From the NCBI GenBank assembly GCA_964106645.2, contig OZ067038.1: a stretch of 64,000 nt of DNA. One strand, 5' to 3'. A program made the position numbers and the translations under genes. This document shows, piece after piece, positions 29,701 to 32,700 of the stretch. How positions within the stretch are numbered: the stretch's first letter is position 1; the number at the start of each line of letters is the position of its first letter. A model generated the notes under the pieces. It was not told where the DNA came from. It was given only the letters and a program-made list of their open reading frames with translations, and did no database searches. Source of the DNA: Podarcis pityusensis (Eukaryota).

Positions 29701-32700
29701 TCAAATGAAAAAATAAAATAGTACAATATATTCTGTGTTTCCCCGCCCCCAATAAATCATGAGAAGATGTAATGATCTTAGAAATTATGTAAACTAAGCA
29801 TTTACCTGCCTGTTTTATTTTTAAGGTGAACCTGATCCTCCAAGGAAACTTGAAGTGACTGAAATCACAAAGAACAGTGCTACTTTAGGGTGGTTGCCAC
29901 CGTTGCGTGACGGTGGTTCCAAAATTGATGGCTACATCATTGCATATCAAGAAGAGGGTCATGCTGAGGATCACTGGACACAGTACTCCGTTGTCAAAGA
30001 TCTTCATATTGTTGTTGCTGGCCTAAAGGAAGGAAAGAAATACAAATTTAGAGTGGCTGCAAGGAATGCTGTAGGAGTAAGCCAGCCAAAACAAACTGAA
30101 GGCATCTATGAAGTTAAAGAGCAACTGAGTAAGTACCTAACTATGACCACTTGTACAACTGAAATATAATTCAATTATTTTGATTTTGTATCTAAATTTG
30201 GATGTCACCTCTTAAAGATATTTAAAATTAGGTCCTGTCACGTAATCTGATGTCTTTAGTGACATTCCTTTTTTAATGGGTTTATTGTTTTTTTCCCAAA
30301 ACAGCAACATACAAACAAGACATTCAAAAGGGTCTACAAAAAAACTTCACAAATAGGCTCATTGGCTCTGTGACCTTCTATAGCAAAGTATTAGGTGTTA
30401 ATTCTGGCCTGAAGAGTACTGAATGTGGGTCCCAGGCCCAGCAGGCAGTTTCTTAATAGTTCGCTTCATTTATGCACAAGTTTACCTTAAAAATTTGTGC
30501 ATCTCCCCATTATAAGATGTTGTGAAGCTTCCTGCATCTGAAGAATAGGACAGCTGTACAGTTAATTAAATAAGATAGCACACTGCTCAGACCTTAGAAT
30601 AAACCTACAAAAGAAGCTAGGAGGAAATGAATCAGGGATATTATATTTCAAGGATATTAGGGGGAATACAATTTATCGGGGCTAGTTCCTTGGTGACTAT
30701 TTGAAAACAAAGTTTTTGGTTGGTTTGGGGACGTAATATCAGACCTTTTGCCTTACTTCTGCAGAATATAGATCAGAAGTGGCTAGTCTGGGGCCTAGCC
30801 ACACCTCCAGACACTGTTAGACTGCAACTCCCATTTGCTGCAGCCAGCATGGCCAGCAGTGGCGTAGCGTGGGGGGTGCCAGGGGTGCCGGCCGCACCGG
30901 GCGCAACTTCTGGGGGGGCGCGCTCGCTGCCTCCGGAATCGCCCAGAGCCCCATGGCAGCGGCTCTCAGCGCTCGCTGCGGAAGGCGCGCCAGGCAGCCC
31001 CTCCTCACCGACGGGCAGCGTTCGCCTGCGGGGCTCGGCCAGCGCGCAGGGCTGGCCGCATGGAGTTGCCGGGGAGCCGCCGCCGCCTGCCATGCCGCCC
31101 TGGCTGCTTCAGCCGCGTCCGACAGCCGGCTCGAGGCTCCTTCCGGCCAGGTCTCCCGATGGGGTGCTGCGGGCGGAGGCTTCGGCACCAAGCGCCACGC
31201 CGCCCACCCGCCCCGACGGGGCCCGCCCACCCGCGCCGGAGGCTGGCCAACCCACTGGCCCCAGAGGCGCCCCCTCCCCGCGCCAGAAAGAAGCCGCATC
31301 AGGGCTAGCCGGGCCGGGGAGGGAGACCGAGAAGGCTGCGCCGCAACGCCCAAAGACGCGCGTCTTGGCGCAAAGGGGCCCACGGCACCCAGACGCGGAA
31401 GGGACCCTCTCCCCGTGACCCGCCACTGAACTGCAATTCCCAGCTCCCTTGGCAAATCCCAGTGCCCAATCCCCATGCTTTATTTGAGGCAGGGGTCCTT
31501 TAATTGCAAAAACAACACCACGGAGGGCAGTAGTCACTACGAAATTTGCCCCAGAGTAGAGCCGTCAGTATTAATGACCATGGTTAGGGGTTAGGGGGCG
31601 CAAATTACTTGCCTTGCCCCGGGTTAGGGGGCGCAAATTACTTGCCTTGCCCCGGGTGCTGACTACCCACGCTACGCCGCTGATGGCCAGTGGCTATGGG
31701 TGTTGGAAGTTGTCGTCCAACAACATTTGGAGAGTTGCAGGCTACCCCCAGTCAAGAGCATGAAAGCTGTCAGGAGGCTGACATTTGTTTTCAGGGGGGA
31801 AATGCATGGTTGTTTCAAGTAAGAATGATATCAGCTTAAGATTGTGAGAACTAATTCAAAATACATATACATAAGTTATTAATTTTTGTGTGTGACCTAT
31901 GTGTCTGTTTCCTATCATTTGATTTTTAATTTCAGTGCCACCTAAGATTCTGATGCCAGATCATGTCAATATAAAGGCTGGGCAGAAACTCAGGATTGAA
32001 GCACATGTTTATGGGAAACCCCACCCGACTTGTAAATGGATGAAAGGAGACAAAGATGTGGCAATATCCAGTCGCCTGGCTGTGCATAAAGCAGACAGCA
32101 CTTCGGTTCTCATCATTAAAGATGTAATTAGGAAAGACAGTGATTATTACAGTCTAACAGCTGAAAACAGCTCGGGAGTAGCTACTCAGAAAATCAAAGT
32201 GGTCGTCATGGGTACATTGAATCTTCTTTTCCATGCTTACTTCTCAACATTCTTAACATGATTCACCAATGAGCATGACCTTATTTGTACCTGTATGTTT
32301 GTCTCTTTCTGTAGATATCCCTGGTCCACCACAGCCACCATTCGAAATTTCTGACATAGATGCTGATGCTTGCTCTTTGTCATGGCATACTCCTCTTGAA
32401 GACGGTGGTAGCAACATCACCAACTACGTGGTTGAGAAGTGTGATACCAGTCGAGGAGACTGGATAACAGTGGTAGCTTCTGTTACAAAGACGAATTGCA
32501 GAGTTGGAAAACTCACCCCTGGAGAAGAATACATGTTCCGTGTTCGTGCTGAAAACCGATTTGGAATTTCTGAACCGCTTCCGTCCGATAAGATGATTGC
32601 AAGGTTTCCATTTGGTATGTCCACCTCAGACAATGGTGCAGTCTTTATTAGAATACTTCTAAGGGTGAAATGATTTTTTTTAAAAAAAAAATTCTCATCT

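Follow-up and report, generated by a model that had tools for sequence, protein, structure and literature searches.

The closest described counterparts of the element reported here are the multicopy Pack-TIRs of animals, in which, as here, host sequence lies inside an element bounded by terminal inverted repeats (TIRs), the copies have distinct target-site duplications (TSDs), and a TIR-less parental locus lies far away (PMC8277862). Such multicopy cases have been regarded as rare in animals; the text of that survey gives four of them in 100 reference genomes and no Pack-TIR in the lizard anoCar2 (PMC8277862), and describes for example Pack-hAT-N8_XT, a frog hAT carrying CAPSL 5' UTR cargo in 3 copies (Tan et al. 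2021, PMC8277862). Compared with the few-copy cases of Tan et al., our results revealed 55 copies, an older subfamily of at least 29 and two captures of gene starts, one after the other (PMC8277862). Among lizards, the hobo_AC families of Anolis resemble the present lineage in being young hATs with shared ends and variable interiors (PMC3014272), and the variation among the interiors of Anolis hobo elements stems from recombination and from the uptake of genomic DNA (Novick et al. 2011, PMC3014272). They differ in the TIR, which is TAGGCTT.., and in the cargo, which consists of old TE fragments with no donor genes named in the passages concerned; moreover, none of the Anolis TIRs listed there equals CAGTGGCGTAGCGTGGG (PMC3014272). 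The Helitrons of bats, with promoters and 5' UTRs among their captured cargo, are likewise high-copy carriers in a vertebrate with sequential capture and a bias to the 5' ends of genes, but they are rolling-circle elements without TIRs or TSDs, and the capture described is by read-through and not by replacement of the interior (PMC4224331). Pack-MULEs and Pack-CACTAs are, like the present element, TIR elements which duplicate and merge GC-rich gene sequence, though they belong to the Mutator and CACTA superfamilies with other TIR and TSD lengths (PMC5861414; PMC6379663). Pack-MULEs are described as taking GC-rich, open-chromatin and lowly methylated genes, and many of them are unmethylated and expressed, while the lizard copies here show CpG decay (PMC5861414). 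In the openly accessible literature we came across no account of this lineage, nor of any lizard hAT with multicopy capture of gene starts.

The window, that is the whole analysed stretch of 64,000 nucleotides from Podarcis pityusensis, contains an element of 826 bp at 30857-31682 with the following features.

30849..30856, no strand: left TSD ATGGCCAG, an 8-bp target-site duplication
30857..30873, plus strand: left 17-bp TIR, a pattern that the genome matches exactly 5,965 times
30857..30927, plus strand: left end common to short MITEs and other subfamilies, in a derived variant also found in L141 and the 1,375-bp family
30928..31008, minus strand: remnant of the first cargo, the 5' region and start codon of the GNAL long first exon (donor G000:C7 about 50,347,608-50,347,980)
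31009..31582, minus strand: second cargo, CpG-island DNA upstream of FZD5 (donor G000:C1:132,556,629-132,557,302, L140:4830-5503)
31417..31428, plus strand: TIR-like motif gacccgccactg within the FZD5 cargo, two transversions away from the donor and unused as an end
31583..31682, plus strand: right end common to the MITE lineage
31588..31653, plus strand: two exact 33-bp subterminal units, whose number varies from 1 to about 5 among copies
31666..31682, minus strand: right 17-bp TIR, the inverted-repeat match to the left TIR
31683..31690, no strand: right TSD ATGGCCAG, an 8-bp target-site duplication

The first-pass annotation had already described 826 bp with 17-bp TIRs, an 8-bp TSD and no transposase ORF, and all of this was borne out, the two TIRs differing by one mismatch (CAGT../CAGC..). 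In fact none of the five long open frames over the element matched a transposase family, the one sub-cutoff match among its open frames being to DGF-1_N (E 0.0098), and Rfam gave no match for the window element. The GC-rich block, the ~150 bp of ordinary DNA and the repeat-bearing subterminal end that had been noticed before are all present as well: the GC content is 0.73-0.81 over about 30850-31400 and about 0.48 over 31450-31600, with most of the window flanks around the element at 0.27-0.48. As for membership in the hAT type, the YARNG-type start of the TIR (motif per PMC3014272) is seen as CAGTG/CAGCG in the 17-bp TIRs. The subterminal repeats are formed by the 33-bp units, and a GGGCGCAA motif occurs at both element ends; these units or the motif may serve as transposase-binding sites. 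From the likeness of the TIR, the element may have an affinity to the Tip100 group.

The element resides in an intron between Ig/fn3 exons, and titin, the name given to the host gene earlier, fits such an Ig/fn3 array. Both cargos are antisense to the left-to-right direction of the element, and therefore antisense to the host gene in the window. The flanks at 30818-30856 and 31691-31744 form a degenerate inverted repeat, and a similar 13-mer is found inside the FZD5 cargo; given these flanks, the target of the insertion seems to have been a short repeat of older date. In the titin intron, the copy most likely rides along as a neutral passenger.

What had been taken as a single composite element turned out to be one member of a young family. 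A whole-element search gave 40 scored matches, all full length at 99-100% identity, while an interior 20-mer had 54 exact matches and a 28-mer had 53 exact and 2 one-mismatch matches. All 54 matches of the 20-mer and one further copy sit inside TIR-bound elements, so that the family totals 55 copies in the assembly, and every one of the 55 has its own matching TSD of 8 bp, the length expected of a hAT, with no strong target consensus. This is a mobile unit and not a product of chance. Fifty of the copies are full length, two have one 33-bp unit fewer, two have a 234-bp deletion together with extra units, and one has a nested insertion. The full-length copies differ from the majority sequence by a mean of 1.5 substitutions (0.18%), 12 being identical to it, and the window copy has two private changes; a pattern holding one of these matched the window only. 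The 826-bp family appears to have amplified very recently, and its lineage appears recently active and polymorphic. The copies are spread over 19 contigs, and the one nearest to the FZD5 donor is the window copy, at 16.8 Mb. Moreover, 38 of the 55 distinct substitution sites are CpG transitions, with a per-site rate about 14-fold that of other C/G positions, and because such transitions are so frequent the copies are likely to be methylated in the germline. Any function of the copies is doubtful, as the apparent methylation argues against it.

Several variants within the family merit mention. Two variants at sites 319 and 659 are common to 9 of the 50 full-length copies and mark a secondary source within the burst. 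The copies L035 and L095 have the 234-bp deletion and an enlarged run of 33-bp units in common, as a derived sub-branch that still transposed. The nested insertion (L060:660-1422) is 763 bp long, with TG..CA ends and a 5-bp duplication, and is solo-LTR-like.

As to the source of the interior, whole-element, 159-bp-block and right-end DNA searches returned family copies alone, and the donors surfaced only with mismatch-tolerant or junction-negating patterns. The one-mismatch matches of the 28-mer were a 778-bp sister element (L141) and a CpG island (L140), whose matched part has a GC content of 0.73 and a CpG o/e of 1.0. No TIR, with up to 3 mismatches allowed, was found in 9.9 kb at this island, nor was any found in the next 10 kb beyond. 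Element positions 153-726 (window 31009-31582) are collinear with L140:4830-5503 over 517 of 544 columns (95% identity), with two deletions, of 18 and 112 bp, that lie between short repeats, and extras of 25, 4 and 1 bp in the element. Among the 27 substitutions, 16 represent a CpG that the element has lost. With respect to a Frizzled ORF of 570 codons, encoded on the minus strand, the donor segment covers the DNA from 533 to 1,206 bp upstream of the start codon; the best PDB match of this ORF is Frizzled-5 with 947 bits, the next having 595. The 826-bp family is 5.0% diverged from this donor and the sister element L141 2.8%; the latter retains stretches that the 826-bp form lost. Since both FZD5 junctions and 5 derived sites are common to the two, a single capture preceded them both.

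Element positions 72-152 have no match to the FZD5 donor. A longer form of this stretch in L141 led to an older subfamily of 420-590 bp, called P here, for which 40 of 267 first-look candidates were scored; every one of the 29 non-self loci retrieved is bounded by TIRs, measures 422-589 bp and has a TSD with at most 2 mismatches. A pattern excluding the junction had 2 matches. One of them, L172, matches the P cargo and is broken up by other sequence. The other, L173, is a CpG island without a TIR, whose positions 1149-1521 match the P interior and cover the first 18 codons of an exon of 200 codons, preceded by 5' sequence of about 320 bp; the exon ends in RLLLLG before a GT. A short alternative first exon and exon 2 follow 40 kb downstream, and their best single-stretch match is to G(olf) with 53 bits versus 46-47 for Gs, the top row of 67 bits for the same exons being two summed stretches of a Gs construct. 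The gene is GNAL, which has a long first exon as one of its alternatives. From this donor the P copies differ by 2.6%; they show 159 CpG losses versus 7 gains, and 24 of the 29 retain a 46-bp tail of another subfamily of the lineage, A. The head of P in turn survives in the 826-bp family and in L141. In the 826-bp element the GNAL remnant has been shortened by internal deletions, and the start codon persists in the window as CAT at 30952-30954, out of frame after deletion. As in Pack-TIRs, the element ends thus flank non-TE host DNA whose parental loci, L140 and L173, carry no TIR. The first-pass annotation had proposed that foreign DNA, possibly from a CpG island, was captured and that its parental locus would lack these TIRs, all in agreement with the two islands. 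It has to be corrected in that the cargo has two donors, taken up in series. It had also held that a multi-copy family with no independent parental locus would speak against capture; the multi-copy family exists, and so do the parental loci.

We hold it to be probable, with good confidence, that the family is a non-autonomous hAT of 55 members which captured two host-gene CpG-island starts serially by template switching and spread in trans. Starting from the 425-bp subfamily A, most of the interior would have been swapped for about 365 bp from the region of the long GNAL first exon to give P; in a P copy, the interior from CCTCAC to the right end would then have been swapped for 674 bp upstream of FZD5; deletions and CpG decay would have led to the 826-bp master, followed by the very recent amplification. 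At each capture, a break inside the parent element may have been repaired by copying an ectopic, open CpG-island template, and the products would have spread by cut-and-paste transposition, with the transposase likely supplied in trans. We infer this order because the junctions are nested, and the swapping of the interior with the ends kept at each step fits the template-copying repair of a broken element. Gap filling or FoSTeST has been proposed as the capture route for Pack-TIRs, with a median breakpoint microhomology of 2 bp in the cases described (PMC8277862). By comparison, the A/GNAL junctions here have GC (2 bp) on the left and CCAGC (5 bp) on the right, and the P/FZD5 junctions have C and G, 1 bp each, a length which chance gives easily. 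All capture junctions lie inside the ends of the parent and none at a TIR; no capture intermediate was seen among the copies examined. It also counts against the reading that the later FZD5 capture is further from its donor in the 826-bp family (5.0%) than the earlier GNAL capture in P (2.6%), although the distance in L141 is 2.8%.

The wider lineage, to which the 5,965 exact matches of the 17-bp TIR in the assembly point, was sampled at 40 places picked to cover lengths from the first 100 listed TIR matches, all of them on the first 26 Mb of C1. They comprise 12 short MITEs (125-172 bp), 18 members of subfamily A (380-560 bp), 4 of subfamily B (545-581 bp) and 6 other forms, and have element positions 1-71 and 726-826 in common. 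The earlier view that hAT-type ends are common to short MITEs is thereby confirmed, the empty MITEs of 125-172 bp bearing the same ends. The interiors of A and B have a GC content of 0.61-0.69 and a CpG o/e of 0.52-0.78. Both subfamilies, A with 425 bp and B with 550-580 bp, are abundant, and their GC-rich interiors resemble 5' UTR or CpG-island DNA. Two members, L106:98-756 and L121:106-600, have part of the A interior and then an AT-rich stretch beside the right end, which in L106 carries AATAAA; this stretch is possibly a remnant of the 3' end of an autonomous element.

A young sister family of 1,375 bp with 52 copies (L114, L174-L225; for example G000:C1:12,544,748-12,546,122) was also found. 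All 52 pattern matches are element copies, 50 of them with a TSD, and the donor was not found among them. The family has the same derived left end as the 826-bp family. Its interior opens with about 540 bp of CpG-island-like DNA, in which the minus strand shows what may be a splice donor, and continues as an AT-rich block resembling a LINE tail; the right end is formed by a whole nested MITE. Another element of 1,046 bp with one 8-bp TSD (L113:105-1150) has an architecture like that of L114 with a different GC-rich cargo, and the first 16 cargo bases of the two are identical.

Other sequencing runs were compared as well. The cargo depth is 600-1,900 against a flank of 26 in run X2 (organism A) and 220-570 against 21 in run X6 (organism C), where a less-deleted form occurs beside the same 112-bp deletion; these depths are no copy numbers. 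The RNA of organism C has 4 reads with the L141-type junction. The FZD5 capture thus appears common to two species labels. Run X3 (organism B) gave 4 contigs of low depth, which is no evidence of absence, and in four runs compared with the donor no RNA reads were found on the FZD5 5' region itself. In one X2 contig a lineage TIR end adjoins L140:5682, about 180 bp past the cargo, where the assembly has none; it is likely a polymorphic insertion.

To template switching we would set against, with a small though real weight, the same serial capture by way of neighbouring insertions, in which elements inserted beside the CpG island and, upon deletion or incomplete excision, a left end and a downstream right end moved the DNA between them, a route described for Pack-CACTA (PMC6379663). 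L113 and the 1,375-bp family, with a left end, a cargo, a whole nested MITE and one TSD, look just so, and a TIR end does lie beside the FZD5 donor in run X2; the nested-MITE architecture suggests that the route stays alive for some members. However, the X2 end is oriented wrongly for a simple deletion, neither donor has a TIR in the assembly, and the junctions of the 826-bp family and P are internal to the cargo or ends of the parent, with no remnant of a TIR or TSD. Far less probable is that the element arose from an autonomous hAT by ordinary deletion, the supposed donors being derived from elements. The high copy number would agree with this, and GC-rich subterminal regions are common in hATs, but the interior traces to two host gene loci, which an ordinary MITE would not show; the donors stand TIR-less at single-copy gene starts, with the GNAL start codon in frame, and keep the CpGs lost in the elements (16 of 27 substitutions for FZD5; 159 versus 7 for GNAL).

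The inner terminus-like motif, which had led to the alternative of another element's end plus its flank, is indeed present: gacccgccactg at 31417-31428 matches the first 8 nt of the TIR, and the FZD5 donor reads GACCCTCCCCTG at this position, both transversions bettering the TIR match. As an element end it failed: in the FZD5 donor, one uninterrupted stretch runs from the GC block across the motif into the 150-bp block, and no family copy ends there. No match in the assembly has C, G or T after the motif, all 53 exact matches of the GC block run on to the full right end, and a TIR 8-mer (of either TIR) is expected by chance in 16.7% of 5,000 Markov-resampled interiors (2.3% for the exact 8-mer). 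A nested-end composite is accordingly hardly credible.

To sum up, a multicopy Pack-TIR is already known, and what is unusual here is the copy number together with the serial capture of gene starts. How TIR elements take host DNA, and why the cargo is GC-rich and 5'-biased, is an open problem, for which the empty MITE, A, P, L141 and the 826-bp family offer a readable series in one lineage, with donors and base-level junctions. Since this series is readable and the lineage appears recently active, template switching can be tested against neighbouring ends, and so can the CpG-island bias, which is suggested by two donors, GNAL and FZD5. In practice, such repeats will interfere with the mapping of reads to the FZD5 and GNAL promoters and with methylation calls there. 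The titin-intron copy itself is probably of little consequence. By analogy, the element may be regarded as a vertebrate counterpart of the gene-capturing transposons of plants, working much like a Pack-MULE. A bolder reading, which we offer tentatively and would lean against, is that the lineage is a still-active equivalent of Pack-MULEs, in which cargo-bearing forms account for the greater part of ~3,000 copies and promoter fragments have been scattered by the hundreds to thousands, through repeated swaps of CpG-island gene starts: those of GNAL and FZD5, and probably also those that gave A, B, L113 and the 1,375-bp family their cargos. If so, promoter fragments of developmental and signalling genes would have been dispersed through the genome, with possible seeding of promoters or silencing cross-talk with the donors.
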